56,311 nucleotides of DNA from a virus. Its lineage: Duplodnaviria; Caudoviricetes. How positions within the stretch are numbered: the stretch's first letter is position 1; each line of letters opens with the position of its first letter. Shown piece after piece: positions 75 to 25,550 of the stretch. The notes below the pieces were generated by a model, which was not told where the DNA came from, ran no database searches, and saw nothing but the letters and a program-made list of their open reading frames with translations. Location: the IMG/VR virus record IMGVR_UViG_3300036833_000194, positions 1 through 56,311 of that record; one strand, given 5' to 3'. The translations under genes were made by a program, and so were the position numbers.

Positions 75-698
75 TTAAGTGGCTCCGACGCCTACTCCGT
101 AGAGCCTGGCCGTGATCACTGCGCCGGCCGACGCAGATGCCTCGATTGCCTCGCCGAACGCACGCCCGCTGGTTCCAGTGGCCCAAGGGACGGCTACTCC
201 AGCAAGCGTCGATGAGTTCATGAGGACACTACCACCGACGATCGAGCTCGATCCGCTAACGATCTTCGTGATACCCGCGAATGCGATGTCAGACGCTTGC
301 CCGCCAGCCGGCTTATTCTGGAGCACGCCGTAAATCGTGGTATTGGCGGTGGAGAGGTTCTGGAACGTCGTCGAGCAGAACGTGACGATGCGCGCCGAGC
401 TCAGCGTAACAAGCAGGAACTGCCCGCTACCGCTGGGCCCTGCAAGCGTTGTCCCGGTGATGGTCGAGTTGCGGGCGTCTGTCGTTGTGGACAGCGTACA
501 CTGCGCGCCGTCCTTGAGCCAGACACCCTCCGTGGCCATCTTGATCTTGTCGAGCACCGCCGCGAGGGATCTCAGAGATTTCGAGCTCGGCACGAACCGC
601 TCGGCGACGCGTGGCCTGCGGAGAATCGCATTGCGGCGACCCTCGTCGAGCCCCAGCAACGCCAAGGCTTGATCGATTTTTTCTCTAGTGACGGCCAT
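75..698 (-). CDS. Capsid decoration/cement-like protein (DUF2190-like)
   Basis: Small G/T/S/A-rich protein with the YGVLQNKP...G.A.EA pattern, directly downstream of the scaffold gene. An internal start (MATEG) is possible. Confidence 0.6.
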   Translation of the reverse strand: MAVTREKIDQALALLGLDEGRRNAILRRPRVAERFVPSSKSLRSLAAVLDKIKMATEGVWLKDGAQCTLSTTTDARNSTITGTTLAGPSGSGQFLLVTLSSARIVTFCSTTFQNLSTANTTIYGVLQNKPAGGQASDIAFAGITKIVSGSSSIVGGSVLMNSSTLAGVAVPWATGTSGRAFGEAIEASASAGAVITARLYGVGVGAT

Positions 699-724: not shown

Positions 725-2143
725 TCAGGCTGCGCGGTGAATCTTGGCCATGCGCTCATCGCGCTCGCGCGCCGCAAGCTCGCGGTTGGCCGGATCCGAC
801 ATGACCTTGTCGAACGCCTGGGCCTCGGTGAGGTCCGGCTTGGTCTTGCGCAGCTCGGAAGCCTTCGCGGTGAGTTCCGCCATGGCGCTGCCGTCGCTTC
901 CCGCCGCCGTGCCTTGGGACGTGCCGAACTCGGCGAACACCTTGCCGGTCTTCTCCATCTCCTTCGCGGCCTTGGCGATCTGCTTGCACTGGTCTTCCCA
1001 GGCTTTCATGGCATCGCGGTCGCCGCGCCGCGCCTTCATCAAGACCTCGCCCGCGTTCGACGCGGTCATCCCGAGTTCCTTGGCGTCCTTCTTGGCGACA
1101 TCGAGCGCCCGCTCGTCCTCGATCGCCTGAAGCCGCTTCTGCAGCGCCTCGTTGTCGGACCGCATCTGCTTGTAGATCGGGTCTTCCTCGTAACGCTTTT
1201 TCGTCTTGTCCATCTCGCCGTCGCGCTCGTCGGGCGACATCGCCTCAAACTTCTTCTTGTCGGTGTCGGACAGGCCGTCGTGGAATGCCTTGTGCTTGGC
1301 CGACATCTTGGCAATGACGTTCTCGCGCTGGAGCTTGGCGATCTCCTCGTCGGCCTTCGTCTTCACCTCGCCGACCGCTTTCGCGACAGCTTCATCGATG
1401 ATCTTCTGTACCGCGGGAGAGACGGTCGTGTTCGTGGTCATGATCTTCCCCATTTCGTCATCGTCATCATCGTCCGCCTCTGGGTCGATGTTTTGGAGGT
1501 ACTCGCAGAATTGCTCATAGCTGTCCGCTATGGCCTTGGCCTTGTCGCCAGCGTCGGCATCGTCGTCCTGGACGATCGAGCGGACCGAGCACTCGAACGC
1601 GTACAGCGCTTGGCGCACGCAGGACAGCAGGTCTTCCGCGTCCTCGCTCGCTTCGACGACACCCTGCGCATCCTCGAAGTCCATCGCGCCTTTGGCGATG
1701 CGGTCTGCGACGAGCGCGAGCACCTTGCCGATGGTGCCGCTGCGCTTGCTCCAAGATTCCGGGAGCACGTCGGTGGCGCCGAGCGTCTTGGCCCGCGCCT
1801 TGATGTGGGCCTTGGCCTTCGCCGGGTCTTTGGCACGACCGATGGCCTGGATGGCGTTCTTGAGGTCAGACTTGTTGTGGATAGGAAAACTGCCATCAGG
1901 CAATGCAGCCCCGCTCTCGGCGGCGGAATCGCGCTCGGCCTGCGTGAACTCGCGCTTAAGGTAGGCCAGCGCCGCATCGGGAAGGTCAGCGCCGAACGAG
2001 ATGGGCTTGTTGTAGATGCCCGGAACGCCGTCGCGGTGCTTGCCGGCATCGCGCTTGGTCAGCACGACCCTCACGCCGCGGCCCGCGCCGGAATCAACGC
2101 TGCTGACATCGTCAATGCGCAGATTTCTCAAAATCTTCGCCAT
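725..2143 (-). CDS. Capsid scaffold-like protein with DUF6582-like domain
   Basis: Begins MAKILRNLRIDDVSSVD..A..G.RVVL.KR, a motif seen at the end of XkdF-type head proteases. Contains ALPDGSFPIHNKSDLKNAIQAIGRAKDP and a long helical A/K/E-rich C-terminus. Start moved from 2272 to ATG 2143. Confidence 0.7.
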   Translation of the reverse strand: MAKILRNLRIDDVSSVDSGAGRGVRVVLTKRDAGKHRDGVPGIYNKPISFGADLPDAALAYLKREFTQAERDSAAESGAALPDGSFPIHNKSDLKNAIQAIGRAKDPAKAKAHIKARAKTLGATDVLPESWSKRSGTIGKVLALVADRIAKGAMDFEDAQGVVEASEDAEDLLSCVRQALYAFECSVRSIVQDDDADAGDKAKAIADSYEQFCEYLQNIDPEADDDDDDEMGKIMTTNTTVSPAVQKIIDEAVAKAVGEVKTKADEEIAKLQRENVIAKMSAKHKAFHDGLSDTDKKKFEAMSPDERDGEMDKTKKRYEEDPIYKQMRSDNEALQKRLQAIEDERALDVAKKDAKELGMTASNAGEVLMKARRGDRDAMKAWEDQCKQIAKAAKEMEKTGKVFAEFGTSQGTAAGSDGSAMAELTAKASELRKTKPDLTEAQAFDKVMSDPANRELAARERDERMAKIHRAA

Positions 2144-3051: not shown

Positions 3052-3299
3052 CGTGTCGGTTCCTTTGTGACGCGTTCAATGGCCGCAAGATAGAGTGCGG
3101 CGTCTTCTAGAATCTCATTCACGAACGTCGGAACATCCTTCTTCTTTTCATCGAAAAACTTGCGCATCACAGGAATGCAGGAAGGCTCTTTCGAGAACTT
3201 CTGCTCGGCTCCAACCAATCCTCCACGGATGCAATGCTGGCGCCACATCACGGCCGCCAAATAGATGATCCGATCCTCGTCGCTGTATTCAGGCATCAA
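3048..3299 (-). CDS. Hypothetical protein
   Basis: Overlaps both neighbours (coupled) and has a GGGAGG RBS. Confidence 0.6.
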   Translation of the reverse strand: MMPEYSDEDRIIYLAAVMWRQHCIRGGLVGAEQKFSKEPSCIPVMRKFFDEKKKDVPTFVNEILEDAALYLAAIERVTKEPTR

Positions 3300-4122
3300 T
3301 AGCCTCCCTCATGGTCAGCGCGCGATCTACCGCACGAACAGCATCAGCGATGATCTCGGCGCCAAGAAGACGAATGACGCGGAAACCTTGGCCTCTGTGA
3401 AATGCATCTCGCTGCGCATCATGCTCAGCAGCTCCCGGCCTTGAATGCCAATATTCTCCGTCGCATTCAATGATGGTCTTTTGTTCTGGCAAGAAAAAAT
3501 CCACGCGGTAAGGACCGATAAATTTTTGCTGCGAGAATGCGACGCCTCGACGCCTCAATTCACTGGCTACTGATCGTTCGAGGCTTGAAATTGTGATGTC
3601 CGCTGAAGCGGCGTGACCGGCAGCTATCCATCCGCGCAAATGTTCAGCTTTTCTGACCGGAGATACCGACTTCCAGTAGCGCAGCAAGCCTTCGCTCGTT
3701 CGTTGCGCATGAAGCTGCTTAAATGCTGGATCAGAATGCCTCTGCCGAGACAGACCTGAGAGTTTCACTTTCATTTCTGGGCGAGCATGGGCCGTGCGAA
3801 TTGATGCATTTCTTCGCGCTATGATCGACTGATCTCTTAGCGATTCAAGCGCCGCCGTTGGGCGTCTTCCTTTGAGAGATGCATATGGTTCGGCAGTGGG
3901 ATCACCGCGTTTTTTCCACCGCTGCCAATGCAGATAACACCAGCCTCTAGCGCGAGCGCGCCTGCCACAGCCATCGATAGAGCATATTTTTAAAGGCTTT
4001 CTTTGTCCACCTCCGGGCAACACGATCGAACAATCTCCGTGTTTCCTATGTCTCTCGTAATGCATCGAACACCAGCCTCGCGATCTGGCCGGCTTCTCAC
4101 ACCCATCTATTTGACAAATCAT
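3289..4122 (-). CDS. Free-standing putative homing endonuclease (two Zn ribbons + DUF559/Vsr-like domain)
   Basis: Two C.IDGC...ARxRGWC..H repeats. C-terminal SSLE...Q.FIGPYRVDF.....IIECDGEYWH...D..RD. Start overlaps the protease stop (ATGA). Confidence 0.8.
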   Translation of the reverse strand: MICQIDGCEKPARSRGWCSMHYERHRKHGDCSIVLPGGGQRKPLKICSIDGCGRRARARGWCYLHWQRWKKRGDPTAEPYASLKGRRPTAALESLRDQSIIARRNASIRTAHARPEMKVKLSGLSRQRHSDPAFKQLHAQRTSEGLLRYWKSVSPVRKAEHLRGWIAAGHAASADITISSLERSVASELRRRGVAFSQQKFIGPYRVDFFLPEQKTIIECDGEYWHSRPGAAEHDAQRDAFHRGQGFRVIRLLGAEIIADAVRAVDRALTMREAIDA

Positions 4123-6110
4123 ACTTCTTCTCGAATTGCCTTGCCGCCTATACTGAATTCTGGAAGCGTTCCTGATTTCACTTTGGCCCATGTTTCCGGA
4201 CAATCCACGCGAAAACCGACGAACCATCCTACCATCCCCAGGTCAACGTTGAGAACGGCCTGCTTCTGCAGCGTGAAAACCATCGATTCGACGAGGCGCC
4301 CGACGCCGGCCCGCTCGTGCATATCGCCCTGCTGGCGGCAGTAGAGCACGTAGTCATAGGCCGCCTTCTCTAGCTCGTCCTCCGGGATGATATCCCCCTG
4401 CTTGTCCACGACGTCTTCCCCGCCGACGGAAGCGATCGAGGCCCAACCGAAGACGAGTTGCTGATCGTCGACCTTCGCAACAACATCGAACGGGATGGAC
4501 CAGTCCTCTTCTTGGCCCTTGCGCATCCCCTCGACGTCACCGAGCACGTGGCCGCTGCAGCCAACCTTGTGCCATTGCCCCATCTCGACGCCACACTCCG
4601 GGCACTTGACGACGGCGCGGAACCTCTTGTCGACCTCGACGGCATTGTCCTGCACCGTCAGGTCGGCGAACCTCACCGGCGCAGTCTTCCGCCCGGTGAG
4701 CAGATGCGCCGCGAGGCGGTGGTGGCCGTCCGCGATGATGTTTCTGCCGTTGAACCTGACGACCACTGGGAGCTTGTCAGGCTCATTGTCGGCCATGCTC
4801 TGAACCTTGTCGGGGTCGACGCGGTTCTGGATGGCTACTAGCGAGTTCAAGCTGATCGTTTTGACCGGCAGATCATCCTGGTCGGTGAGCGCGGCGAGGA
4901 ACCGCGGCGCCTGATCGGAACGCAAGTCCGCGAGCGCATCCTGGGCCCACGGGAAAGGCGTCTTGGCCATGCTGCTGTCGCCGTCCAGCGGGTAGAGATG
5001 CAACGCGACGTTGATGCCGTCGTCGTCGCCCTGCTTCGCGACCGCGTTCTCGTCGTCCTGCTTGCCGGCGAGAGCGTCGACGTCGACGTCGAGCTCCATC
5101 ACCGCGCCTGGCGGTTCGCCCTTCTTTGTGAACTCCTTGAGGTCGATCGAGTGGTCGCTCGGCTGGCCAGCCTCGTCCCATGCGTTGAACAGCCGCTCGT
5201 TGCGGTGGTGGGTCACGATGACGAGCTTGTTACCGCCGGCCTTGCGGATCGCCTCCGCCAACCCGGAGAAAGCGCGCTTCCTGAAATCGTTGAAGCTTTC
5301 TCCTTCTGGTACCGGTTCATCTGGCTTGTTCTCGATGTACTCGGCGATCTTTGGCATGGCATCCTTGGTGCTCTTACCCGTGAACTTGCCGAGGTCCCAC
5401 GGCCGCAGCTTTGCGCTGAACGTCGGCTTGACGCCAATGATGTCGCCGATGATGCCGGCGGTCTCCTTGGCCCTCTCCAGGTCTGACGAGACGATGGCCT
5501 CCACGCCGCCGATCTTATCGAGTTTGTCGCCGGTCCGGCGCGCCTCATCGCGCCCTTCCTCGACGAGCGGAACGTCCAGCCACGACCTGATGCGGTCCTG
5601 GGACGTGTCCACCTCATTGTTCATCTTGGTCTTGCCATGGCGGACGACGAGGACGGTGACGATCTTGCCAGTTTTCGTCTTCTTCTTGCCAACGGCATCA
5701 CCATCGTCTGCGGGCTCAACGATGCGAGCGCCGCCCTTGATCTCGGCGATCGTTGTCAGGAAATCCTTGCGGCGGCGCCGACGCCCCTCGTTGCCGAGCG
5801 CTGTCGTGGCATGAACGTCGCCGGCGGACGGCTGCTGTTTAGCCACGGCATCCGCGGCCGTGTCATCGGGGTTGAACATGTCCCTCAGACGCTGAGACAG
5901 GTCGGACCGCTCATAGAGCTGGCAATAACCGCTTGGTTGGATGTCTTCAACATCAGTGCACTCGGACGGAGGAACGAACATGCTACAGGACGAGCACTGC
6001 TTGTCGCCGAGCGGGTGGTCCTGGTAGCCAGCCTTGACGTGGTTCTTCAGCTTGGCGATGCGAGTCTCGGTCTTGCCAACCTCGGTGATCGCCTCTGTGA
6101 ACGTGAGCAT
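4119..6110 (-). CDS. Multi-domain prohead protease: HiPIP-like + histidine phosphatase + ParB/Srx-like + Zn finger + XkdF-like serine protease
   Basis: YQDHP...CSSCSMF...C...I.PSGYC; VRHG...SSDLERAKETA...GES...IVTH; PVVV..NGR.IIADGHHR; CPECG...H..GC; QQLVFGWA...VVDKQGDII..ELEKAAY...MH...FSIGG. Confidence 0.85.
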   Translation of the reverse strand: MLTFTEAITEVGKTETRIAKLKNHVKAGYQDHPLGDKQCSSCSMFVPPSECTDVEDIQPSGYCQLYERSDLSQRLRDMFNPDDTAADAVAKQQPSAGDVHATTALGNEGRRRRRKDFLTTIAEIKGGARIVEPADDGDAVGKKKTKTGKIVTVLVVRHGKTKMNNEVDTSQDRIRSWLDVPLVEEGRDEARRTGDKLDKIGGVEAIVSSDLERAKETAGIIGDIIGVKPTFSAKLRPWDLGKFTGKSTKDAMPKIAEYIENKPDEPVPEGESFNDFRKRAFSGLAEAIRKAGGNKLVIVTHHRNERLFNAWDEAGQPSDHSIDLKEFTKKGEPPGAVMELDVDVDALAGKQDDENAVAKQGDDDGINVALHLYPLDGDSSMAKTPFPWAQDALADLRSDQAPRFLAALTDQDDLPVKTISLNSLVAIQNRVDPDKVQSMADNEPDKLPVVVRFNGRNIIADGHHRLAAHLLTGRKTAPVRFADLTVQDNAVEVDKRFRAVVKCPECGVEMGQWHKVGCSGHVLGDVEGMRKGQEEDWSIPFDVVAKVDDQQLVFGWASIASVGGEDVVDKQGDIIPEDELEKAAYDYVLYCRQQGDMHERAGVGRLVESMVFTLQKQAVLNVDLGMVGWFVGFRVDCPETWAKVKSGTLPEFSIGGKAIREEV

Positions 6111-6237: not shown

Positions 6238-7122
6238 TCACGCACCTCCCTGCCACGAGAATCCAGACGGCCCGGTGCCTGTCGTGAACAAAGTCGTGCG
6301 TCCTGTTCCATCAATATTGATGGTTCCCACACCAGTAACCTCTGGTGGGGTGAAGCTGTATATCGGCAGCGTCGGTCTCAAAATTTTGCTGCTGTCCGGC
6401 GACCAAGCGGGGTCATCTCCGGGTACGAGCAATCGCTGATTGCTGCCATTGCTATCCATGAGCCATATGTTCCAAGTGGCAAAAATCTCAAGGTCGGTCG
6501 ATGTCGGCCCGCTGGTTCCATTCCGCAAACCTGCACTCAAATTATTGTCGCCAACACCCTGAAAATACGCAATGGTCCTGAAATCCGGAGACCACACAGG
6601 GGCTTTCTGCTCAATAGGGAAACCTGTGGTCGGATCGGTCGTCGTATGTGTCATCTGAGTCATGATGGTGCCGTCTGCACTCATCACCCAGAGATTGAAG
6701 GTTCCGCTTCTATTGGACGAAAACGCAATGTGCTGGCCATCTGGTGCGTAGGTCGGCGCGAGGTCGATGAAATTTCCAGATGTAATTTGCTTTTTCCCGG
6801 TCCCATCCACCTTCATGGTCCAGATATGATCACCAGACACATACGCCAATGATTGAGTGTCGGGTGACCAACGTGGAATCATATTAATCGGCGGATCATT
6901 GGAGTTAGTCAGCGGATGATCTCCACTCCCGTCTGCTGCCATGAGTCGAATCGAACTGCTTTGGTCAGAAGCCCGATCCACATACACTATGGCGTCTCCG
7001 CCTGGAGACCAGCACGGGTACATTGCTTTGTTCGCGCTGTGCGTCAATTGCGTTCTCTGTGTGCCGTCTTGGCTAACTTTTAATATCTGGTTGCTGTACG
7101 AAACAGCGATAAGACCACTCAT
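6238..7122 (-). CDS. TolB-like beta-propeller (PD40 repeats)
   Basis: Repeated P.WSPDG..IA(F/Y)...IW.M..DG motifs. Start at MSGLIAV with RBS AGGAGGGAG. Confidence 0.85.
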   Translation of the reverse strand: MSGLIAVSYSNQILKVSQDGTQRTQLTHSANKAMYPCWSPGGDAIVYVDRASDQSSSIRLMAADGSGDHPLTNSNDPPINMIPRWSPDTQSLAYVSGDHIWTMKVDGTGKKQITSGNFIDLAPTYAPDGQHIAFSSNRSGTFNLWVMSADGTIMTQMTHTTTDPTTGFPIEQKAPVWSPDFRTIAYFQGVGDNNLSAGLRNGTSGPTSTDLEIFATWNIWLMDSNGSNQRLLVPGDDPAWSPDSSKILRPTLPIYSFTPPEVTGVGTINIDGTGRTTLFTTGTGPSGFSWQGGA

Positions 7123-7150
7123 GCTCTCCCTCCTTCTGTCGGTATTTGCG

Positions 7151-7459
7151 TCACGCCGCCCCACGCTGCGCCTCCGCCGGATCGATGCGCATCTTGCGCT
7201 CGAGCAGCAGTGCCGCGTCATAGGCCAGCCGCGAGGCTTGGACGGCCCGCGCCGCCTCCGCCGTCCGGCTCTGCGCGTCTTTGAGCGCCTGCCTAGCTTT
7301 GTTCTCGGCGACCTGCGCTGCATCCCGCTCAAGTTCAGCGCGGGACATATCCAGAAGCGCCTTCTCCACATGGAGCGGACGCGGCGTAGACGCGACGCTG
7401 ACGGCGACTGAGCCGGCCAATCGCTTCAGGCTCGTGTCATCGACAGAGCGATCCATCAT
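7151..7459 (-). CDS. Hypothetical coiled-coil protein
   Basis: A/E/R-rich helical ORF coupled to the upstream ORF. Confidence 0.55.
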   Translation of the reverse strand: MMDRSVDDTSLKRLAGSVAVSVASTPRPLHVEKALLDMSRAELERDAAQVAENKARQALKDAQSRTAEAARAVQASRLAYDAALLLERKMRIDPAEAQRGAA

Positions 7460-8271: not shown

Positions 8272-9903
8272 TTATTCTTCATCAGGAACTTTATCAAGGT
8301 CTGTCACAATTTCGAGGCTACATCGACACGACGGATGCGGATCAGGCGGCGCGTCCATCTGACCATCGATACTCTCGAACGAGTCGTCGATGCCAATTCC
8401 GTCCGGATTCATATCGGGAATCGATAGACATACCTCGCATGTTTTCTCATCAAGAGCGACCTGCCAGAATTGCTTCACGGAATCACTCGTCAGCGCACCG
8501 CGATCGATCGCCTGCGCGTAAGCATCCTGCAGTCCCGCGTTCACAGCCCTAGTCGATTCTGTCTCAGCAATCATCTGCGCTCTAAAATCAAGATAATTTT
8601 CAGCATAATCCGCCACCATCGACGAAATGGCCACATCCGTGAGGTCTTCGCCGGCATCGATCGCAGCCTGGACCTCCTCATCATAGGCTGTGTTTCGCAG
8701 CCGGCGCACCAGCGCGTCTGGATCGAGGTCGTAGAGCATGTTCTGGTAATTCATGACCGCCTGCGACTGACGGTCGGTGAGCCCGATCAGCGAGCGGATG
8801 TCCTCGACGATCTCATCTGGTCCGAGTCCAGATTGCGCGCCTGCGAGGATGATCGAATCGATGCTATCGCGGGCCTGCTGTTCAAGTTCGGCAATGAGAT
8901 CATCATCTTGCGCTTGACGGATGCGATCCTGAGTTTTCTGATCATAAAGATCAAAATTGAAACGGCCGCCGATGTCCTTGACGACCGTTTCAGCGCGGTA
9001 TGGATCGGTATGGTTCAGTAGGGCTGGGCTGACGATGGCAGGGTTCGGGTCGGCTGGGCGCGACTGAACGAGATTATTCGCCTTAGATATTTTGTCAACA
9101 TATCCATACTTGATGCCGTTCGCGATCGATTCCTTGTCCATCGCCACTGGCATGCGCGCAACGCCGCTGTCGCGCAGAACCGCGAAACGATGGCGCCCGT
9201 TGTCGAAGCCGACTCGGCCATCCGCTTGGATGCCGACGTCAGAAGCCTGCATGCTATCATGGCTGGCTAGGTACTCTTGGAATCGTCCATAGCGCCCGCT
9301 GACTTCTCCCCCGACTTGGCCAGACACTTTGCCGCCGTGGCCGACGTAAAAGTTTTTGTCCCTGGACCACGCTTCGTCGAAACGCGCGACGTTCACCTCG
9401 ACGAGCTGCTGGCCCAACGCTCTGGACGTCGGGGAAAGCTCGACAGTCACCGTGCGACCACCGACATGCACTGACTGGCTGGATGTCTCGCCACCGCCAC
9501 CGCCCGTCCATCGCCCATGTTCATCCCGTGGCTGATCAGGGCTGTATTTCAGAAGGTCGATGACAACGCCTTCTTTGCGGAACCGCACCGCGCGCCGCTT
9601 GGCCGCGAACACGCCGTTGATCTTGCGCGCGCCGAGTTGCGCTCCCTCCTCGCGCACCTTGCCGATACGAGCGAACGCTCCCTTCAGAACCTCGCGGAAA
9701 TGGCCCCATGCGATCTCGCGCTTGAGCCCGTGCCAATCTCCGGCACGCGCATGCTGGAGCGCAGTGTCTGGCACGAGCGTGCCCAAGTGCATCAGCGCCT
9801 GCTTCACGGCGCGCTTGATGCCGGCAACACCAGCATCGGCTATGCGGCGGACGGGGTGGTCGCGGTCTTGGTAGTGGCGGGCAGCTCTAACGACCTTGGC
9901 CAT
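8272..9903 (-). CDS. Head morphogenesis (MuF/SPP1 gp7-like) protein with inserted ParB-like domain
   Basis: C-terminal RAQMIAETE...W...DEKTCEVC...PPDPHPSCRC. Internal KYSPDQPRDEHGRWT and FDNGRHR motifs. Alternative GTG start at 9936. Confidence 0.85.
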   Translation of the reverse strand: MAKVVRAARHYQDRDHPVRRIADAGVAGIKRAVKQALMHLGTLVPDTALQHARAGDWHGLKREIAWGHFREVLKGAFARIGKVREEGAQLGARKINGVFAAKRRAVRFRKEGVVIDLLKYSPDQPRDEHGRWTGGGGGETSSQSVHVGGRTVTVELSPTSRALGQQLVEVNVARFDEAWSRDKNFYVGHGGKVSGQVGGEVSGRYGRFQEYLASHDSMQASDVGIQADGRVGFDNGRHRFAVLRDSGVARMPVAMDKESIANGIKYGYVDKISKANNLVQSRPADPNPAIVSPALLNHTDPYRAETVVKDIGGRFNFDLYDQKTQDRIRQAQDDDLIAELEQQARDSIDSIILAGAQSGLGPDEIVEDIRSLIGLTDRQSQAVMNYQNMLYDLDPDALVRRLRNTAYDEEVQAAIDAGEDLTDVAISSMVADYAENYLDFRAQMIAETESTRAVNAGLQDAYAQAIDRGALTSDSVKQFWQVALDEKTCEVCLSIPDMNPDGIGIDDSFESIDGQMDAPPDPHPSCRCSLEIVTDLDKVPDEE

Positions 9904-12583
9904 GACGGTGGATTGCCCGCTTCTTGGTCGAGACACCGAACCGCGGCCCCGACAACCTGATCTGTCGACGAGCGGCCGACGCCAGGATCATCTTTTCCAA
10001 GTTCGTCTGCCCGGCCGCGGGCGGCTTGCCGGGTTGCGGCGGCTGCGGCTGCGGCTGCGGCTGCGGCTGCGGCTGCGGCGGATTCTGTATTCGGTCAAGC
10101 GATGCTTGAGCCTTCTGATCTTCGAGCTCAAGCTGATCGTCCGTCAACCCGGCCGCCTGCAGCGCCCGGTCATCCTGGATGTCCGGGAGGCCCCCGGCAT
10201 CGAGGATGTAGCTCTGCAAGTCCTCGTTGGGAAACATCGGCATCCCGGCCTGGCTAAGCCTCAGAACGAAATTCGAGAGCACGTCGAGGTCCACCCGCTG
10301 CGCCATGTCCGGCTCAATGGTCGGCTTGCTGTCCGCATCCCAGCCGTTGAGTTTCCACAGGCGCGCCACAGCATATTTGTTGAGAACGGCAGCGATGGCG
10401 TTCAGGTAAGCCTCGACCGCCTGGAAGAACAAATCAATCTTGCTGACGGCAAGAGACTGAGTGCCGCGGGCTTCATGCCCCAGCGTCAGGAAGTCCGCCA
10501 AGACCGACGTCATGATGCTTAAATTGTAGCGCGTGATAGTCGTGTTGAAGTCGAGCCCGGCGGTGCGCATGTTCGGCGTGATCAACTCGAACTTGTACTG
10601 CGGCGCCGCACTGGGTCCGTTCGCTCCTGGCTGCATGTCCGATGGCAGCACGAGCCCCATCTGCTCGTCGATGCGCAGGTTCACGACGATCTTCTTGTAC
10701 ATGTTGAGCGCAGCGGTCGCAGCGGCGTCGCCAGCCTGCGCAGCCTCCATCAGTTGGCCTGGCACATACAGCACCGGGATGCCGGCCAAGCGCTCAGAAA
10801 GGATAGCTTCCTGCTCTCCAAGACGCTTGGAATAATAATAGGGCAAATAACTATTTCTTAGAATAGAACGACCTTCCGGATTCGCCTTGTAGTGAATGGG
10901 ACGAAATAAAAGCATTTTTTCAATGGGTAGATCAATCAACGGACCAACCCATGGCTGCTGCGTCATTCCCTTGGTGATCCCATTCTCATCGAAAAACCAC
11001 TTGATGACCGTGTCTTGTCCTCTCAACGGAAGGCGGCGCCAGCCGATCTTGCCGTCGTCGTACTCGCTCGTCGGCAAATCATGGCCAGGTCTGTCTGGAT
11101 CTGGTCCCGGTTCGCGGCCGAGCCGCCGCTTGTAAACGATCTCCATCGGAGCAAACCCGAATGGCAGCATCGACAGCGCCTCGCCGACAAAATCGGGCCA
11201 CGTGTGCGAGTTGCCGCACCACACCGGTTTTCCGTTGCGCCTGACGAGAACAATACCAGATGGCACAGACACGCAGTACACCTTGCCCTGGTAAGGTCGT
11301 TTGTACCAGCCGCGTCCGTTTCTTAGGTACGGCGATCCATGATCCTTGACATCGGACCAAAGCGAAACGCGATAGCGCATGGCTCCGATAGCAAATCCAG
11401 TCGTCTGTGTACTGGATAAGATATTCGCCACGTACCCGGCTTTCAGGGCGATCTCTTGCAGATCATCCGCTAATTGCTGCGATGATGTAAACAAAGCTAT
11501 TAGACCGGTCTCGGCCGCCCATCCATCACCTTCTGAGAACCCACGCAAGAAAGCACGCAGTTCTTCCGGGGGCGCTTCCTTTAGCCACTCCGGCAACCGT
11601 TTGAATCTTGACGTTGCGCCAAATTCTTCACGCAACAGCGTTGCGAATTTCTTATCTGACCAAATCCATTGCGTAGAGTCGTTGACTTGGCGTGTGCTCA
11701 TTTTTCCGCGAAGGCCAACGCGGTTTACCAATTCTTCGACGTATTCCGTTTCTTTCTGGATGAGATAGATTTGACCACGCTCAGTCGCATGACCATCGGC
11801 TACAAAGAATCCAAGAAATTCAAGCCAGTCCAGATCACGTCCGGACCGATTGCCAATCCATTGCACTTTCTTCGAGACCCAACCGCATTTATTGTAGATG
11901 TCCTCGCATTTGTAAATTTTCAGATCGTGCTTTTGCGATGCGTCGTGCTTACGTCCACTCCGCATGGCGAACAGCATGCGATGACTAGGTGTGACCAGAA
12001 AATCGACGGCATCGCCAGCATTGCCCATCAACTCGCCATCAAAATCATAGTCATGTCGAGCGGTAGGTTTCACAAATTCTAAGAATCCTTCGGCTGTCCT
12101 TTGCGCAACCTCATCATCATCTTCTAATTCCTCAAACCTATGCCAGCCTCTCTTGGTCAGAATTTCTGTTTCGTCGTCATAGCACATGTCGTCCATGCAG
12201 GATTCTAGGAAGTCGGCGCCCTCTTGGCTCGCTCCTTTATTTTCGCTCGGGTTGACCCGCCATTCGACCTTGCGCATCAGCGACTGGATCGCGAACAGCA
12301 GCGCCCCGATCGTCGGCGAATTGTCCATCATCTCGCGGTACTTCTGAGCGCCTTGCCTCCCACGCAATACTTGAAGGAACTCCTCGAAGGGCCAGCCCCC
12401 AAAAAATCTAAGGCCCGAGCTGCCAACTTCGCGGAACGTCATCCCGCTACTCATCAGGGGAATGGCGCCCCATGAATTGTAGTTTGGCTTGTCAGCGACG
12501 GGTGGGCTAGCAACTTGGCTTCCTACGTTGACCAACTTCGGATCGATGTTGGGCATCGGAGGCAATTCGTCATTAGGTGGCAT
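9887..12583 (-). CDS. Portal protein (DUF935/Mu gp29-like) containing an intein
   Basis: Follows TerL; NPEGRSILR..Y..YY.K, ER..GIP, I.RY...I...VLA.FL.LG....G..SL motifs. Confidence 0.9.
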   Translation of the reverse strand: MPPNDELPPMPNIDPKLVNVGSQVASPPVADKPNYNSWGAIPLMSSGMTFREVGSSGLRFFGGWPFEEFLQVLRGRQGAQKYREMMDNSPTIGALLFAIQSLMRKVEWRVNPSENKGASQEGADFLESCMDDMCYDDETEILTKRGWHRFEELEDDDEVAQRTAEGFLEFVKPTARHDYDFDGELMGNAGDAVDFLVTPSHRMLFAMRSGRKHDASQKHDLKIYKCEDIYNKCGWVSKKVQWIGNRSGRDLDWLEFLGFFVADGHATERGQIYLIQKETEYVEELVNRVGLRGKMSTRQVNDSTQWIWSDKKFATLLREEFGATSRFKRLPEWLKEAPPEELRAFLRGFSEGDGWAAETGLIALFTSSQQLADDLQEIALKAGYVANILSSTQTTGFAIGAMRYRVSLWSDVKDHGSPYLRNGRGWYKRPYQGKVYCVSVPSGIVLVRRNGKPVWCGNSHTWPDFVGEALSMLPFGFAPMEIVYKRRLGREPGPDPDRPGHDLPTSEYDDGKIGWRRLPLRGQDTVIKWFFDENGITKGMTQQPWVGPLIDLPIEKMLLFRPIHYKANPEGRSILRNSYLPYYYSKRLGEQEAILSERLAGIPVLYVPGQLMEAAQAGDAAATAALNMYKKIVVNLRIDEQMGLVLPSDMQPGANGPSAAPQYKFELITPNMRTAGLDFNTTITRYNLSIMTSVLADFLTLGHEARGTQSLAVSKIDLFFQAVEAYLNAIAAVLNKYAVARLWKLNGWDADSKPTIEPDMAQRVDLDVLSNFVLRLSQAGMPMFPNEDLQSYILDAGGLPDIQDDRALQAAGLTDDQLELEDQKAQASLDRIQNPPQPQPQPQPQPQPPQPGKPPAAGQTNLEKMILASAARRQIRLSGPRFGVSTKKRAIHRHGQGR
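10041..10076. repeat. (GGCTGC)6 microsatellite encoding a Pro-Gln run in the portal C-terminus
   Basis: Six perfect in-frame hexamers (PQPQPQ...). Confidence 0.9.
11210..12184 (-). mobile_element. Intein (325 aa) with LAGLIDADG endonuclease in portal
   Basis: DDM|CYDDETEILTKRGW...VTPSHRM...FLGFFVADG...FLRGFSEGDG...VYCVSVPSG...RRNGKPVWCGN|S. Confidence 0.93.
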
Positions 12584-12976: not shown

Positions 12977-15442
12977 TCATTCCTCGAAGCTCCCGTGGAT
13001 CATGAGCGGCTGCGTGACGATGATCGGGGCGATGATGCGCGTGTTGGGCGTAAGCACGAACCGCGAGAACGCTCGCGACATAGCATCGACCTGGTCCTTG
13101 TAGGCTCCAGACGGGAAACAATTATGCACGAGCACACCATTGGCGACGTACTCTGGCATCTCATTGACCTGCAAGTTGTAGACTCTGTGTACGCCTGACA
13201 GCATGCGAATTGAAGATACCACAACGTCTGCTGCAAAATTGTTGGTGTCGAATTTTAGGCTTGAACTCTTCCCCGCACCAGTCGCACCGTTTCGATTCGA
13301 GGCGCTTATGCTTGTTGTTAGCAACGTCTTGCCAGTGAGCAGTCTTAGCACAAGAGATGCTGCAGAATTTGGCATTCCAATGATTGGTTCTGAACAGTTT
13401 GCCGCATTGCTCGCATTTGTGCCTACGCAATCGAAAATTTGGGTGAGCATCCCGCCAGCAGCGCGGCGAACAATATTCGTTGCGTGAACTTGCCGCATCG
13501 AAGGGTTCACCGCATTCGACGCACCTTCGTTCAAATCGATGACGCCCAAGCTTCCGATGTTCGGAAGCGGTGAGACATTGAAGGTTCTCGACGCGATTGT
13601 TTGTCGGATCGCCGTCTCGATGGTGGATATGACATCCTGAAGGAATAGAACCAACTTCGTTTTCGTAAACGGTACGATGTAGGAGAAGCCGCGTACCTCC
13701 GCCAGCGCAGCGGCTGGAAAAGTACGGTCTACTGCCTTCGATCCAACGATAGATGATGTTCCTGTAAACCGTAGTAACGACTCTCCTTCCCTGAGCATCT
13801 CGGCTTTCTTGAAACCGTAGCCCGGACGAAAGATTTGGTGATCGAAAGTAGTTCTCAGCCGTCGCCCATTGGAAAAACCGATTTCGCATATGCGTTTTGT
13901 TCCTGTGCAGCCGGATTGAAGTACGCGACGCCAACCGAGACGAGTCATGACCCAATCATCAGTAGTCACTTGAGCAATCGGCTTGTCTCCTTGCGCTGTA
14001 GTCACAATAGCCGTTTCATCTAAGCACGCAAGCTCATTAAGGAACGCTTCGTTCCATGGCCCATCGACGACGGCAACGTTGCCAGCCTCAGCCTGCGACT
14101 GGACGGGGATCGCGCGGTCGGCCTTCTCCCCGCTCTCGGGCGTCGCCGTCACCCGGTAACCGACGAGCGCTGCGACAAGAGAGCGCGCCTGGATCGCGCC
14201 GGCAGCCCCAGGGTCCTGCGGCAGGGATATCTCGACCGACTTGCCGTCCGCCGACGCCGTGTTGACGATCATCGCCTGCGGGTTTTCCACGCGATCGCGG
14301 GCGACGTGAGCGATGTAGAACTTGCTATCGGCTCGGCAGAATCCGACCTTGACGCCAGCCGTGTAAGCCGAGGTCCTCTTGACGCTGCCGGCGAGGTCCC
14401 AGCCGCGCACCCAGCGGCAGTCGGCCGGGGCGGCGGGGACGACCTTGAACCAATGCCGCTTGAACATGAGGCCGCCTCGAGGCGAAGGACGCTGCTGGTG
14501 CTGGCCGCTCACTGCATGGGTTCCCATGGTTGCCTCGTCGCGGTCGACGGCCGCCTCCGGGAACCGCTCGGGGAACAGAAGCTCGCCATCGGCCGTGCGT
14601 AGGTCGCGCCCGAACGGCGTGACGCACGCCCGTTCCGGCTCGAACCGCATCGGCAGCATCACGTGAACATAGCGCAGCTTCATCGCGAGGATGACCCCGG
14701 ACACGTCCCGCTCGTGGAGCCGCTGCATGATGACCAGGATGGCGGACCTGACCGGGTCGTTCAGCCGCGTCGTGGCCGATTCCCGGAACCGCATCGTGGT
14801 GCGGTCTCGGTCCGCGTCGGATTCAGCCGTGTCGATTGAGTGCGGGTCATCTATCAGGAGGCGGTCGGCCCGGCTGGCCGTCAGCGACCCGAACGGTATC
14901 GTCATGCGCCATCCTGACGCAGCGCACTCGATGTGGCCCTCTCCCGTCTTCGTGAGCTTGACCCTGTCGCCCCACAGCCTCTGATACCATTCCGACGACA
15001 CCAGCGTCCGGAACCGGCGGGCGTCGCGGTAGCAGTTGTCCTCGCGGTATGAGGTCGCGATGTACTGCAGGTGCGACAGGCCGCACGGGCCCCATTCAAA
15101 CGCAGGAAAAAAGACACCGAGCAGGAGCGATTTTCCGGTACCGGGCGGGATGTTGATCAGCAGCCGATTATCAAGGCCCTTCGCCAGAAACTCGTCCCTC
15201 GTGACCGCCTCTAGGTGCCGGCACAGCATCTCGATGTGCCATCCATGCACGTAGGGCGTCTCTGGGAGCACGACCGGCCACGCCTCCCGGACGAACCCCG
15301 CCAGCGATGAGCACCTCGCCCTGACCGCGTCGATGTCACCGGACCGCTGCTGATCAATGCTGCGTCGGGCCATCTCCGCCCGGATCGCTTCCTGGGACGG
15401 CAAGCGCTGCAATAATCCCATCGAGCGTGCATAGCTGGGCAT
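12977..15442 (-). CDS. terL: Terminase large subunit containing an intein
   Basis: Walker A NIPPGTGKS, Walker B LLIDDPH, IMQRLH, QQ.P, nuclease GWDLA and FP.G..KDQVDA. Confidence 0.95.
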   Translation of the reverse strand: MPSYARSMGLLQRLPSQEAIRAEMARRSIDQQRSGDIDAVRARCSSLAGFVREAWPVVLPETPYVHGWHIEMLCRHLEAVTRDEFLAKGLDNRLLINIPPGTGKSLLLGVFFPAFEWGPCGLSHLQYIATSYREDNCYRDARRFRTLVSSEWYQRLWGDRVKLTKTGEGHIECAASGWRMTIPFGSLTASRADRLLIDDPHSIDTAESDADRDRTTMRFRESATTRLNDPVRSAILVIMQRLHERDVSGVILAMKLRYVHVMLPMRFEPERACVTPFGRDLRTADGELLFPERFPEAAVDRDEATMGTHAVSGQHQQRPSPRGGLMFKRHWFKVVPAAPADCRWVRGWDLAGSVKRTSAYTAGVKVGFCRADSKFYIAHVARDRVENPQAMIVNTASADGKSVEISLPQDPGAAGAIQARSLVAALVGYRVTATPESGEKADRAIPVQSQAEAGNVAVVDGPWNEAFLNELACLDETAIVTTAQGDKPIAQVTTDDWVMTRLGWRRVLQSGCTGTKRICEIGFSNGRRLRTTFDHQIFRPGYGFKKAEMLREGESLLRFTGTSSIVGSKAVDRTFPAAALAEVRGFSYIVPFTKTKLVLFLQDVISTIETAIRQTIASRTFNVSPLPNIGSLGVIDLNEGASNAVNPSMRQVHATNIVRRAAGGMLTQIFDCVGTNASNAANCSEPIIGMPNSAASLVLRLLTGKTLLTTSISASNRNGATGAGKSSSLKFDTNNFAADVVVSSIRMLSGVHRVYNLQVNEMPEYVANGVLVHNCFPSGAYKDQVDAMSRAFSRFVLTPNTRIIAPIIVTQPLMIHGSFEE
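13121..14026 (-). mobile_element. Intein (302 aa) in the TerL nuclease domain
   Basis: ELA|CLDETAIVTTAQGDKPI...LRTTFDHQIF...VYNLQV...YVANGVLVHN|CFPSG. The in-frame middle has no recognisable endonuclease. Confidence 0.93.
13161..13889 (-). CDS. HNH homing endonuclease with Zn-finger repeats, nested out of frame inside the TerL intein
   Basis: LLHRTVYE...IPSGCHIHHRDGDPTNNRVENLQCL...H followed by three CxxCGxxF...(F/Y)CSxxC repeats. Start uncertain (ATG 13889 or TTG 13955). Confidence 0.88.
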   Translation of the reverse strand: MRNRFFQWATAENYFRSPNLSSGLRFQESRDAQGRRVVTTVYRNIIYRWIEGSRPYFSSRCAGGGTRLLLHRTVYENEVGSIPSGCHIHHRDGDPTNNRVENLQCLTASEHRKLGRHRFERRCVECGEPFDAASSRNEYCSPRCWRDAHPNFRLRRHKCEQCGKLFRTNHWNAKFCSISCAKTAHWQDVANNKHKRLESKRCDWCGEEFKPKIRHQQFCSRRCGIFNSHAVRRTQSLQLAGQ

Positions 15443-18251: not shown

Positions 18252-18854
18252 TCACTCTTTCTGCGCCTCGATCACGAGATGATCAATGTCCAGGCCGCGG
18301 TCGGTGTGCCGGTAAGACTCGACGGTTTTGCATCCCCGGAACGGCAAGGGTTCGTTCAGCACGATAGGGCGCGTCGGCATGTCGCCAAAGGCTCCGAGAG
18401 AATGATTATCGGTAGCCATCATCGAGAACAACCAGCCGCCTGACTTGAGTACGCGATAGGCCTCGTTGATGGCCTTCTCCTGGCCGTCAACGACGTGCTG
18501 GAGCGTGCAGACGTCGACCACCGCGTCGAACAGGCCGTCATGGAACGGCAAGCCGCGGGCGTCGGCCGCATGGAACGTCACGGACGTGTAGGGCGCCCAG
18601 CGGGTGACCCACTTCTCGGCCCGCGCCACGGCGGCTGCGGATGAGTCGACGGCATCGACGACGAAGCCATGCATCGCCAACCACAGCGTTTGGGCGCCGG
18701 CACCGCAGCCGAGGTCAAGCACCCATTTGGGCGACGTCGTTGCGCCGAACCGCCGCATCATGAACCGAGCCATGGCGGGCTCCGGACAGGTGCCCCATTG
18801 GCGCTCGCGGTGGATCTTCTCCCATACTTCGATCTCATCAATCTCGCCGATCAT
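18252..18854 (-). CDS. Class I SAM-dependent methyltransferase
   Basis: VLDLGCGAG, D.S..A, LPF.D..FD.V.D, RVLK.GG. Confidence 0.9.
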   Translation of the reverse strand: MIGEIDEIEVWEKIHRERQWGTCPEPAMARFMMRRFGATTSPKWVLDLGCGAGAQTLWLAMHGFVVDAVDSSAAAVARAEKWVTRWAPYTSVTFHAADARGLPFHDGLFDAVVDVCTLQHVVDGQEKAINEAYRVLKSGGWLFSMMATDNHSLGAFGDMPTRPIVLNEPLPFRGCKTVESYRHTDRGLDIDHLVIEAQKE

Positions 18855-18939
18855 GTTCCCCTCTTTGGATTGGTGCATGCATTGCGCGTTGACGGAGAGG
18901 CAGCGTTTTTTGTCATCTATTTGGATGACAAAAATTCCC

Positions 18940-20061
18940 TCAACGATCGATCAGACATGCTTTCATCCCTCGGCAGCTCTGGAATCGCTTCCTCAGCAGC
19001 GCCTTTGGGTCTTCGATCCCGCCGATGATCTTGGCGATCCGCTCAGCGGCGTGGCCGTCGCCATAAAGATTCATGCTTGGATGCTTGGGCTTGCCGACAT
19101 CAAGGCATCGTTCAATGCACTCGATAATCTGACCGGCGACCGGTTCACAGTTGACGATCGGCGAGCATTGTGGACGACCTCGTTGCCGATCACCAATGTT
19201 GACGAACGGAAGCTTGAATAACGGCGCCTCGATGAGCCCGGCCGACGAATTCCCCACCATCACGTCGCACCAGCGCATCAGCGACAGGTAGACCTGGGCC
19301 GGCAAGTCCTCGTGATAGACTACATCCAGTTGCGTTCCGGCCAAAGACTGCCATTCGGCGCGAATCATGTCGTTTCCGGCATCCGCGTTGGGTCCGATCA
19401 GAACCATGGCCGTTCCGGCTGGCCGTGCGCGTAGGGCGGTCGCCAGTGCGTCCAATTCCGGCCCAATGTCAGACAGCGTGTTGCTGTGAAAGCTCACCAG
19501 CAGGATCCGCACGGGCGTGGCGAGACCAACCGCGGCGAACGTCTCGTCATGGCCCAGGAGCGGCGTCTGCATGACGCGGTCGATCCCAGAGTCGCCGACC
19601 ACGTGGACGCGGTCCGGCTGCTCGCCCATCTGGATGATCCGGTCGGCGGCGTCCTGGTTCGTCGGGAAGTGCAGGTGTGATAATTTTGTCACAGCGTGGC
19701 GGAAACAATCGTCCTGGCTGCCTTCTGTGATGTCACCGCCGCCGATGTGAGCGATCGGAATGCCCATGATGTTCGCGCCCATAGCGGCGCCAAGAATTTC
19801 GTAACGATCGCCATGCAAGATAACCATTTCCTTGTCTGAGAACTGTTCCGCTAGTTCAGACGCAATATGACAAGCGGCCACGGTAGCCCCCGTCACGGCA
19901 TCTTCCGGCGACAAAACTTCATATGGCCGACCATCATCACCAAGGTCTTCAGGATCAACGCTAATCCAATGGCAGCCGCCTCGCATACCGCCGAGCGCTT
20001 TGTCGACCATCTCCAGCGCCCCGCGATCCGCTCTGCTCCCGGTCACGATTGCGATCCTCAT
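18940..20061 (-). CDS. neuC: Hydrolysing NDP-sugar 2-epimerase (NeuC/LegG family)
   Basis: VTGSRAD, GDRYE, IAHIGGGD.TEG..DD.FRHA.TKLSHLHF, GNSS.G.IEAP, NIGDRQ.GR, YGDG.A. Confidence 0.93.
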   Translation of the reverse strand: MRIAIVTGSRADRGALEMVDKALGGMRGGCHWISVDPEDLGDDGRPYEVLSPEDAVTGATVAACHIASELAEQFSDKEMVILHGDRYEILGAAMGANIMGIPIAHIGGGDITEGSQDDCFRHAVTKLSHLHFPTNQDAADRIIQMGEQPDRVHVVGDSGIDRVMQTPLLGHDETFAAVGLATPVRILLVSFHSNTLSDIGPELDALATALRARPAGTAMVLIGPNADAGNDMIRAEWQSLAGTQLDVVYHEDLPAQVYLSLMRWCDVMVGNSSAGLIEAPLFKLPFVNIGDRQRGRPQCSPIVNCEPVAGQIIECIERCLDVGKPKHPSMNLYGDGHAAERIAKIIGGIEDPKALLRKRFQSCRGMKACLIDR

Positions 20062-20170
20062 TGTTTCGTCCCCTTCCCCTTCTTTCGCTTCGCCGCAGCC
20101 GCCAGCTTGCGGACGCGCCATGCCTTCTTCGACGCAGCAGAACTAGCGGCCACCGACCTGCGCTTTTGCC

Positions 20171-20356
20171 TCATCCCCTCCAAGACCGACGCCAGATCAG
20201 GTCGAGCTTGTGCTCCATCGCGAGTTTGATCCCAGCCAACATCAAAGAAAGCCCCATAGCAACGAGGCCCCCCTTGGCACCGTAGATTCCCCAGCACCCA
20301 ACAAACAGTACCAGGGCACCAACGGAGAAAAGAACGCCAGCTATTATGTGATCCAT
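20171..20356 (-). CDS. Small two-TM membrane protein
   Basis: Hydrophobic 61-aa ORF coupled to the aminotransferase stop. Confidence 0.5.
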   Translation of the reverse strand: MDHIIAGVLFSVGALVLFVGCWGIYGAKGGLVAMGLSLMLAGIKLAMEHKLDLIWRRSWRG

Positions 20357-21528: not shown

Positions 21529-21535
21529 ACCAGCA

Positions 21536-22216
21536 TCAAAGGGATGTGACGGCCATGACCTGACCGTTGAGCATGGCGCGGGCGGCGTCGATGTCAGCAT
21601 GGGTGTCGATGTCCAGGGATCGTTCCGGAGGCATGACGTAGCCGTAAGCGTAGGGACCGTACAAGTCGCCACCGCGTAGCAGATGCTCCATGCCAATCAG
21701 ATACACGGCGCCGTTGGGCATATAGATCGTCTCCGTCGTCCATGCGCCGTTTTCCGCCGGCCTCATCCTCGAGGCGAGGCCAAGCTTGAACAGCGCATCC
21801 TCTTTCGGGTACCTGACCAACGAGATCACCGAGTCGGCATGGTTTCTCTCGAATAGGTCGATAGTCGCCCGCACGTCGTCAGCAGTCCGGAATGGAGATG
21901 TTGGTTGCAACACAAGAACCGCATCCCAATGAGCGAAATGATGCTCCCTCACGAACCGCGTCGCGTGCAGAACAACGGACATGGATGTCGCATCGTCAGT
22001 CGCGAGCTCGCGCGGCCGGTCGATAACCTTGACACCGAGCGATCTGGACACGCCAGCGATGGTTTGCTCATCCGTTGACACGAACAGTTCGGCGCACGTC
22101 GCTAACCCAACCTCGATCGACCACGCGATCAGCGGCTTCCCGCCGAGGTCGGCGATGTTCTTGTTCGGCAGGCGCTTCGAACCACCGCGGGCCGGAATGA
22201 CACCGAGGATCCTCAT
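21536..22216 (-). CDS. neuA: Acylneuraminate cytidylyltransferase (NeuA/LegF family)
   Basis: IPARGGSKRLPNKNI, VSTD, RP.ELA.D, LQPTSPFR, NGAVY, SLDIDT..D. Confidence 0.93.
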   Translation of the reverse strand: MRILGVIPARGGSKRLPNKNIADLGGKPLIAWSIEVGLATCAELFVSTDEQTIAGVSRSLGVKVIDRPRELATDDATSMSVVLHATRFVREHHFAHWDAVLVLQPTSPFRTADDVRATIDLFERNHADSVISLVRYPKEDALFKLGLASRMRPAENGAWTTETIYMPNGAVYLIGMEHLLRGGDLYGPYAYGYVMPPERSLDIDTHADIDAARAMLNGQVMAVTSL

Positions 22217-22226
22217 GTTCGCTCCA

Positions 22227-25337: not shown

Positions 25338-25531
25338 ACATGATGCCTCGACTGCATCGGCGTCTTCGCCTCGCCGTGGACGAGGACCTCGGCCAGGCGC
25401 TTCATGCAACGCACGATCGCCCGTCCCTCTTCGGTCTTGAGGAGCCGCCCCTCCTCGAGCTCATCCAAGCTGAGGATGACCGCCTCCAGCTCGCCGCGCT
25501 GCTTCTTTTGCCATTTTTCCTCGTCCATCAC
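25334..25531 (-). CDS. Hypothetical protein
   Basis: AAGGAGG RBS; coupled to neuB. Confidence 0.55.
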   Translation of the reverse strand: MMDEEKWQKKQRGELEAVILSLDELEEGRLLKTEEGRAIVRCMKRLAEVLVHGEAKTPMQSRHHV

Positions 25532-25550
25532 CGCCTCCTTTAGCTTTGGT

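Follow-up and report, generated by a model that had tools for sequence, protein, structure and literature searches.

The window analysed here is the whole of the IMG/VR virus record IMGVR_UViG_3300036833_000194 (Duplodnaviria; Caudoviricetes), a linear sequence of 56,311 bases with 60.6% GC and a completeness of about 29% according to CheckV. An open reading frame (ORF) of 663 amino acids on its minus strand joins, in this order, a HiPIP-type domain, a conserved linker module (termed DVH here), a histidine phosphatase, a ParB/Srx-fold domain, a Cys/His finger and an XkdF-type protease domain. With a probability of roughly 0.55 we regard the product as a phage polyvalent head protein, that is a chain of passengers ending in a prohead protease, which is loaded, cleaved and delivered as had been proposed in an earlier reading of the sequence (the original prediction). 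Proteins of this kind are known. The HiPIP and histidine phosphatase cargo, the ChaB cargo of the relatives and the proposed details of loading and cleavage are new.

Domain composition of the 663-residue protein

The original prediction had placed one ORF of 663 codons at positions 4119 to 6110, and exactly this ORF was recovered, on the minus strand, starting with an ATG and including the stop codon. A plus-strand reading of 4119-6110 was rejected, being full of stops. The GC content by codon position (0.65/0.40/0.80) follows the pattern of the genuine genes of this genome. It is hardly credible that separate genes were fused into this long ORF by an error of assembly or gene calling. The record is a single metagenome contig, which speaks for such an error, but the reading frame is uninterrupted, its GC content at third codon positions (GC3) of 0.80 is typical of real genes here, and the identical domain order is found in relatives of other origin, namely P0002 (74% identity), P0006 (51% identity over 100% of the query) and loci L001-L003, the three loci returned by the single-protein locus search. 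Near-identical DNA was sought in the phage collection and none was found. The protein (P0001) and its parts are located as follows.

4119..6110, minus strand: proposed polyvalent head protein of 663 amino acids, one ATG-started ORF, stop codon included
5910..6056, minus strand: HiPIP-type domain, residues 19-67, Cys ligands C39, C42, C51 and C63 (PioC match, AlphaFold2, Foldseek, conservation)
5682..5837, minus strand: DVH linker module, residues 92-143, QPSAGDVHATTALGN...KDFLTTIAEIKGGARIV, with VAK and VGK motifs at its flanks (conserved in 17 of 17 full-length relatives)
5061..5663, minus strand: His_Phos_1 domain, about residues 150-350 (Pfam, fold, R157/H158/G159/R213/H301, P237)
4647..4997, minus strand: ParB/Srx-fold domain, about residues 372-488, DGHHR at 461-465 (fold match, phrog_1033, conservation)
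4521..4625, minus strand: optional Cys/His finger module, residues 496-530, with C503, C506, H514, C518 and H521 (motif)
4122..4481, minus strand: XkdF-type (Peptidase_S78_2) protease domain, residues 544-663, with H598 and S653 (PF14550, PHROGs)

Sequence and fold both back the HiPIP, phosphatase and ParB/Srx domains; for the protease the backing comes from Pfam and PHROG matches, for the finger from its motif. Thirty relatives of the protein were found, and the full-length ones are 42-74% identical to it and originate from independent metagenomes. Conservation was read from an alignment of 27 members, and modularity was counted on the 17 full-length proteins that end in XkdF.

In a sequence comparison with the PDB, the HiPIP PioC (PDB 6xyv, 54 residues) aligned to residues 19-67 with an E-value of 4.5e-10 and with all four Cys residues in register, in agreement with the HiPIP-type pattern (C39, C42, C51, C63) pointed out originally, and two further HiPIPs matched less closely (E 0.0084 and 0.039). 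Searched exhaustively with HMMER, residues 1-103 yielded 206 proteins at E ≤0.001. The 129 of them that were aligned all share Y29, C39, C42 and C63, and at least 90% have C51; in the 27-member alignment the four Cys residues and Y29 are all retained in the nine HiPIP carriers. An AlphaFold2 model of residues 1-103, based on the deep 129-sequence alignment, reached a predicted local distance difference test score (pLDDT) of 96-98 over residues 21-70. The top three Foldseek matches of this model are all HiPIPs (1isu, 6xyv and 3h31; root mean square deviation (rmsd) 1.4-2.3 Å), with 1isu at 1.5 Å over 55 columns and 6xyv at 1.4 Å over 48 columns and 44% identity. A segment-wise AlphaFold check had been suggested originally, and for residues 1-103 it gave a HiPIP fold. 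Most likely the domain would bind a [4Fe-4S] cluster that tolerates oxygen. It is the only HiPIP domain in the window.

Cellular HiPIPs are free electron carriers of the periplasm. The phage domain has the Cys register, the conserved Tyr and the fold in common with the small HiPIPs PioC and Iro, but it lacks a recognisable Tat signal and follows a short conserved segment within a 663-residue cytoplasmic protein. A crude test detected a Tat-like leader on 42 of 145 related HiPIP sequences. The phage domain was probably derived from a periplasmic host HiPIP and has lost the Tat signal since.

The phosphatase region matches His_Phos_1 (PF00300) with an E-value of 1.4e-30 and 106.9 bits against a cut-off of 21.7, and its fold matches PhoE (1h2e) with a Z-score of 19.8 and an rmsd of 3.1 Å over 186 residues. 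The RHG motif (157-159), the second Arg (R213) and the second His (H301) align with the corresponding PhoE residues, while an additional conserved His or Tyr (H302 in this protein) follows the second His in the phage proteins. R157 and H158 are each present in 20 of the 27 aligned rows, R213 and H301 in 23, the exceptions being mostly gaps. The roles assigned here to the RHG His, the two Arg residues, the second His and the general-acid Glu are those usual in this superfamily.

For the ParB/Srx domain, the DGHHR motif that had been read from the sequence lies at residues 461-465 and is accompanied by a sulfiredoxin-like fold. The fold matches, which cover residues 410-488, are led by sulfiredoxin 6ky4 (Z 8.4, rmsd 3.3 Å, 75 residues) and include a serine kinase (5x0b, Z 7.5), SbnI (5ujd, 7.0), human Srx (1yzs, 6.7) and Atu1540 (2hwj, 6.3). 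G462 is present in all 27 rows and H463 in 26, and phrog_1033 matches the region at E 0.0025. The Pfam ParB families PF02195 and PF08857 matched nowhere in the 663-residue protein; PF08857 matches three of the 27 relatives, and PF02195 is among the precomputed matches of P0011 and P0020. A second, stand-alone ParB-like gene is located at 30627-31289 on the minus strand (phrog_620, E 8e-44), where it adjoins a glucosyltransferase-like gene (phrog_842).

The Cys and His residues of the finger are present as originally described and are followed by a second His (H521), giving CxxC..H..C..H; all five are kept in the five aligned carriers among the 27 relatives; its pLDDT is below 50 and it shows a weak match to DUF5795. 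The DVH module has no family match in the scanned family libraries, short stand-alone relatives of it were sought and none were found, and its pLDDT is low. In the AlphaFold2 model of the whole protein, which was based on 27 sequences, neither the finger nor the linkers nor the HiPIP region reach a pLDDT of 50. Phosphatase matches dominated the fold searches with this model, and nothing was gained on the XkdF fold. Likewise, a PDB profile search with the 27-member alignment returned phosphatases only among the best 60 of 83 matches.

The assignment of the C-terminal part to an XkdF-like protease was confirmed by PF14550, which matches residues 544-661 with an E-value of 1e-17 and a score of 64.7 bits (cut-off 24) and whose model is covered from position 6 to 125 of 126, and by four PHROGs annotated as head maturation protease. 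H598 and S653, which by analogy with HK97-type proteases we take to be the catalytic pair, are each present in 21 of 27 rows, the others being mostly gaps or partial proteins.

Cargo exchange, head-module position and the predicted protease-scaffold pair

A comparison of homologues for variable N-terminal cargo had been put forward as a check of the original prediction, and the cargo does vary. The DVH module, the ParB domain and the Ser motif of XkdF are each found in 17 of 17 full-length relatives, whereas HiPIP is present in 10, the RHG phosphatase in 14 and the finger in six. ChaB occurs in 11 of the 27 aligned members, and inserts with coiled coils and a 'RDxxGRW' motif are gained or lost among the relatives. 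The latter motif, in the form (D/E)(E/Q)(P/A)RD(D/E)xG(R/M/K)W(T/A), repeats in variable inserts, up to four times in P0032; its carriers are P0031, P0032, P0034-P0036, P0038, P0003, P0009, P0011, P0013, P0014, P0017 and P0019.

The gene order on the minus strand is TerL with an intein, portal with a LAGLIDADG insert, MuF, a PD40 beta-propeller and the 663-residue ORF, followed by an HNH/DUF559 endonuclease, a 147-residue ORF with a hydrophobic N-terminal stretch, a scaffold-like protein of 472 residues and a protein of 207 residues. The head genes are located as follows.

12977-15442, minus strand: large terminase TerL (family matches)
9887-12583, minus strand: portal with LAGLIDADG insert (family matches)
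8272-9936, minus strand: MuF-like head morphogenesis protein (family matches)
725..2143, minus strand: scaffold-like protein, 472 amino acids, ATG at 2143 (highly charged; Atlas model with a predicted template modelling score of 0.23)
75-698, minus strand: cement-like protein, 207 amino acids (gene order and the homologues in L001 and L003, which weakly match PF09956 'phage cement protein' at E 0.0022 and 0.00073)

The 663-residue gene occupies the protease slot in the head module of this uncultured phage, downstream of portal and MuF and ahead of the scaffold-like and cement-like genes, and a scan of 62 window ORFs revealed no other head protease. The same ParB-XkdF core is found in two cultured phages, Rhizobium phage RHph_TM3_3_9 (annotated 'DNA methyltransferase/prohead protease protein', 245 amino acids) and Roseobacter phage CRP-6 (gp55, 229 amino acids), with 31.7% identity over residues 372-656 (E 6e-29), and in both it is followed by a scaffold, a small protein and the major capsid protein. 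The cultured proteins lack the HiPIP, DVH, phosphatase and finger modules. Furthermore, the stop of the protease gene overlaps the start of the scaffold gene in the cultured phages, whereas about 1.97 kb with the HNH/DUF559 gene and the 147-residue ORF lie between them in the window.

The XkdF domain terminates a few residues past its Ser motif. Residues 1-31 of the scaffold are near-invariant in four of four relatives with an overall identity of 55%, and the scaffold N-termini of the cultured phages match the end of the Peptidase_S78 model, in RHph_TM3_3_9 at positions 126-160 of 165 (E 0.002) and in CRP-6 at positions 131-160 of 165 (E 0.007), both below the gathering score. From these weak S78 matches the XkdF protease may be counted as assemblin-like. 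A complex prediction for XkdF residues 536-663 and scaffold residues 1-60 gave a score of 0.71 (best of three controls 0.00), a mark reached by 58 of 80 solved complexes and by 2 of 110 mismatched pairs and one that speaks for likeness to an intact fold rather than for binding. At least 62% of the contacts were common to the runs, the pLDDT of the partner was at least 45, and the predicted contacts place scaffold residues 1-21 on protease residues 648-663 and 594-598. The start of the scaffold is hence similar to the final strands that the protease fold seems to lack, and it is predicted to dock on XkdF.

Most domain boundaries of the 663-residue protein carry the motif [V/I/L]-[G/A/D]-K (AVAK-QQPS, AVGK-KKTK, AVAK-QGDD, EVDK-RFRA), and before ChaB in the relatives it reads V(G/D)K-VW. 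In a looser form, [AVIL][GADSN]K, it is present upstream of RHG in 14 of 14 cases and immediately ahead of ChaB in 7 of 7, and it precedes DVH in 11 of 17 proteins, ParB in 12 of 17 and XkdF in 9 of 15. The strict motif accounts for 17 of 98 lysines in the 663-residue ORF and the scaffold taken together, compared to 13 of 249 in 16 other window proteins (sums made by hand, MuF and the cement-like protein excluded). On the basis of its sequence context we propose this newly noted motif, which marks the domain boundaries, as a candidate cleavage site. The motif translates into a definite prediction of the cleavage specificity of XkdF-type proteases, for which a limited literature search on XkdF returned no description of cleavage sites.

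A hidden Markov model (HMM) of the HiPIP domain also found it, again signal-less, on other phage head proteins: on the MuF protein P0044, at the C-terminus of the portal P0165, which bears a HExxH motif as well, at the N-terminus of two InPase proteins (P0129 and P0147), on the small ParB protein P0130, on the metallopeptidase-like P0079 (HExxH motif) and on P0080 (899 amino acids, DUF7178). Portal-HiPIP loci resembling P0165 were sought in IMG/VR and none was confirmed. P0051 (581 amino acids, six matching stretches) was dropped, being a tandem repeat with scattered Cys residues and no match to the HiPIP HMM. InPase is regarded by Iyer et al. 2017, in the passages of that paper used here (PMC5512222), as a packaged and injected polyvalent-protein domain. 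That HiPIP turns up repeatedly, on portal, MuF and InPase proteins as well as on proteases, suggests that a general class of polyvalent-protein domain has been overlooked.

In a HiPIP tree the protease polyproteins and P0021-P0023 form one 26-row set (SH-like support 95), outside which the portal, MuF, InPase and ParB fusions fall. The label phage or Tat changes four times on this tree compared to a mean of 20.9 in shuffles, none of 500 shuffles being as low; the tree (FastTree, 54 columns) is of low resolution and supports the clustering, not a number of captures. P0021-P0023 constitute a second group, in which the phosphatase precedes HiPIP and no protease is present, and one of its members, P0023, lies between terminase-like genes. 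At phage locus L007 (6001-6972) phosphatase and HiPIP appear to be divided between two ORFs, either separate ones or ones shifted in frame; the HiPIP is encoded by an open frame of 108 codons (6649-6972), into which the end of the phosphatase match extends.

Proposed loading, cleavage and delivery compared with other explanations

In the mechanism we propose, the XkdF domain would lack the last strands of the HK97-type (S78) protease fold, ending just past the catalytic Ser motif. The missing strands would be encoded at the start of the scaffold gene, and therefore the protease domain would dock on the scaffold N-terminus and be co-assembled into the prohead, bringing the passengers along. Once active, the protease would cleave behind [V/I/L]-[G/A/D]-K, both in the scaffold and in the linkers that join the domains, and free fragments of about 8 kDa (HiPIP), 24 kDa (phosphatase) and 15 kDa (ParB), as estimated from residue counts. 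These would remain in the head and exit with the DNA at the next infection. Four results fit cargo loading via the protease, namely the place in the head module, the variable cargo, the boundary motif and the predicted docking; packaging, cleavage and delivery with the DNA are inferred. Our best guess for the cargo is that it interferes early with phosphate-ester or redox signalling of the host, and that ParB contributes a DNA activity dependent on nucleotides. A wider and more tentative idea, which we would rate as possible but unlikely, is that signal-less HiPIP [4Fe-4S] domains have been recruited into several head-internal proteins and are delivered with the DNA as an oxygen-stable redox effector, the split protease fold being the loading device. 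A HiPIP delivered in this way could short-circuit or sense the state of host electron transport, or it could act with the phosphatase or ParB on DNA or signalling molecules.

The original prediction had found no described system in which to place a [4Fe-4S]-like domain on a head protease. As regards the architecture this no longer stands, since it is that of the polyvalent proteins (Iyer et al. 2017). In the passages of that paper drawn on here (PMC5512222) these combine unrelated effector-type domains on one polypeptide, late virion-gene context, a C-terminal peptidase, ParB-superfamily cargo and a domain content that varies among orthologues, and C-terminal assemblin-like peptidases are expected to process them in virion assembly. 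The 663-residue protein has at least two unrelated effector-type domains, a variable architecture and a C-terminal processing peptidase (residues 544-663). As regards the HiPIP cargo the statement holds: the main text of PMC5512222, as distinct from its supplementary architecture lists, mentions neither HiPIP, iron, Fe-S nor ChaB, phosphoglycerate mutase, histidine phosphatase or XkdF. Scaffold docking and the [VIL][GAD]K motif, too, are absent from the passages of it considered here. In large myoviruses of the SPN3US type, according to the parts of PMC10052503 used here, head-internal proteins are packed together with the genome, undergo processing by the prohead protease and are ejected into the host; there the cargo consists of separate gene products cut in trans, whereas here it is covalently linked to the protease. 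Full-text literature searches, judged on titles and the openings of abstracts, returned no description of a phage HiPIP or of an Fe-S electron-transfer domain as a virion-delivered effector. If the cargo is packaged and injected, an Fe-S electron-transfer domain would be used in just this way. To our knowledge, tail-tip proteins (with a siphophage example) are the sole Fe-S components of virions known. The proposed split of the protease fold between protease and scaffold in turn suggests a simple rule for targeting arbitrary cargo into a capsid and could aid the loading of proteins into phage heads.

Several observations weigh against this interpretation. NCBIfam Iro (NF041615) matches the HiPIP domain at E 1.2e-6 but with 28.8 bits against a cut-off of 100, and Pfam HIPIP (PF01355), which matches 11 of 33 related HiPIP proteins at E ≤0.01, gives no match to the 663-residue protein at E-values up to 1. 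The major capsid gene is absent from the window, and another protease could lie outside it, the record being far from complete. A circular wrap-around, with the capsid gene lying at the opposite window end, was rejected for lack of similarity, and a comparison of the record with the capsid-like ORF of L003 gave no match. With regard to cleavage, the boundary counts stem from related sequences and are thus non-independent, and of the ten [VIL][GAD]K sites of the ORF three fall within folded domains, two of them in the phosphatase (197 and 240) and one in the protease (568). In the fold searches, no solved prohead protease structure was among the best 50 matches or, in a second search, among the best 50 of at least 500 matches, the phosphatase filling both. 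With regard to docking, the Pfam scan of the window scaffold's own N-terminus gave no Peptidase_S78 match. The scaffold alignment in the complex prediction collapsed to two rows; moreover, split-fold halves are prone to pass such a prediction by their likeness to intact solved folds, and the same contacts could mean that the scaffold peptide is a substrate in the active site.

The phosphatase was described as intact in the original prediction. This applies to the RHG motif, R213, H301 and the fold, but not to the general acid: lrEihlG of PhoE aligns to lrPwdlG, so that P237 takes the place of the general-acid Glu. The exchange is shared by the clade, with Pro at this position in 22 of 27 rows, a variable residue 239 (D, N or K) and the motif LRPW(D/N)LG, and in the relative P0016 the phosphatase has also lost the RHG Arg and His. 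Because of these two features the cargo may be non-catalytic, as far as its sequence tells. It is nevertheless distinctly unlikely that the passengers are filler or structural modules altogether, that is inert pseudo-enzymes, docking knobs and spacers with the HiPIP as a stable metal-bound knot. The replaced Glu throughout the clade, the loss of the nucleophile His in P0016 and the finger and DVH modules, which show no enzymatic signature, would agree with such a role, but the RHG residues, R213 and H301 are retained in most rows, the HiPIP Cys residues and Y29 are kept in the aligned carriers and in the wider family, and DGHHR is kept nearly throughout.

Passengers that act only in the producing cell or in the prohead and are never delivered, their fragments being degraded or expelled on DNA entry, are rather unlikely but better than the filler role just considered. 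ParB could handle DNA or nucleotides in packaging, while the phosphatase and HiPIP could sense the metabolic or redox state and time maturation. ParB-XkdF is the invariant core and also makes up the cargo-free proteins of 229-245 amino acids of the cultured phages, and its presence without other cargo suggests an assembly-linked role of ParB. Furthermore, the phosphatase-HiPIP protein P0023 lies between terminase-like genes and not among ejection genes, and prohead proteases and scaffolds usually exit the head. On the other hand, folded domains of 8-24 kDa would hardly pass the capsid pores, the turnover of cargo among the relatives resembles that of conflict-driven effectors, and HiPIP is also found on portal and MuF proteins and together with InPase, for which packaging and injection are assumed in the part of PMC5512222 cited above. 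Loading via the protease and delivery with the DNA hence remain our preferred interpretation.

Further genes of the window

Both essential head genes, TerL and portal, seem to host mobile inserts. The intein-splicing match of TerL is located at residues 508-774, and LAGLIDADG and endonuclease-like matches lie in the first 460 residues of the portal. The gene with HNH and DUF559/Vsr-like endonuclease matches (3289-4227, minus strand) has a GC3 of 0.47 compared to about 0.8 in its neighbours and, as called, overlaps the end of the polyprotein gene by 109 bases; probably this is a homing endonuclease gene whose true start lies later. The PD40/WD40-like beta-propeller gene between MuF and the polyprotein (6238-7371, minus strand) has an unusual GC content by codon position (0.47/0.58/0.61). 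Upstream of the polyprotein in the related phage L001, the scanned ORFs instead comprise, among others, those of a di-haem peroxidase-like protein and of an intein-bearing B12/radical-SAM protein.

A run of minus-strand genes at 18252-27253 encodes a NeuB-family synthase, a UDP-GlcNAc 2-epimerase, a DegT-type aminotransferase, a polysaccharide deacetylase, a GNAT protein and a SAM methyltransferase and looks like a phage-borne pathway for a nonulosonic (sialic-acid-like) sugar. Two adjacent ORFs of 420 amino acids (51739-53001 and 53035-54297, both minus strand), matched by one tail-fibre PHROG over residues 93-418 in each, are probably tandem paralogues.

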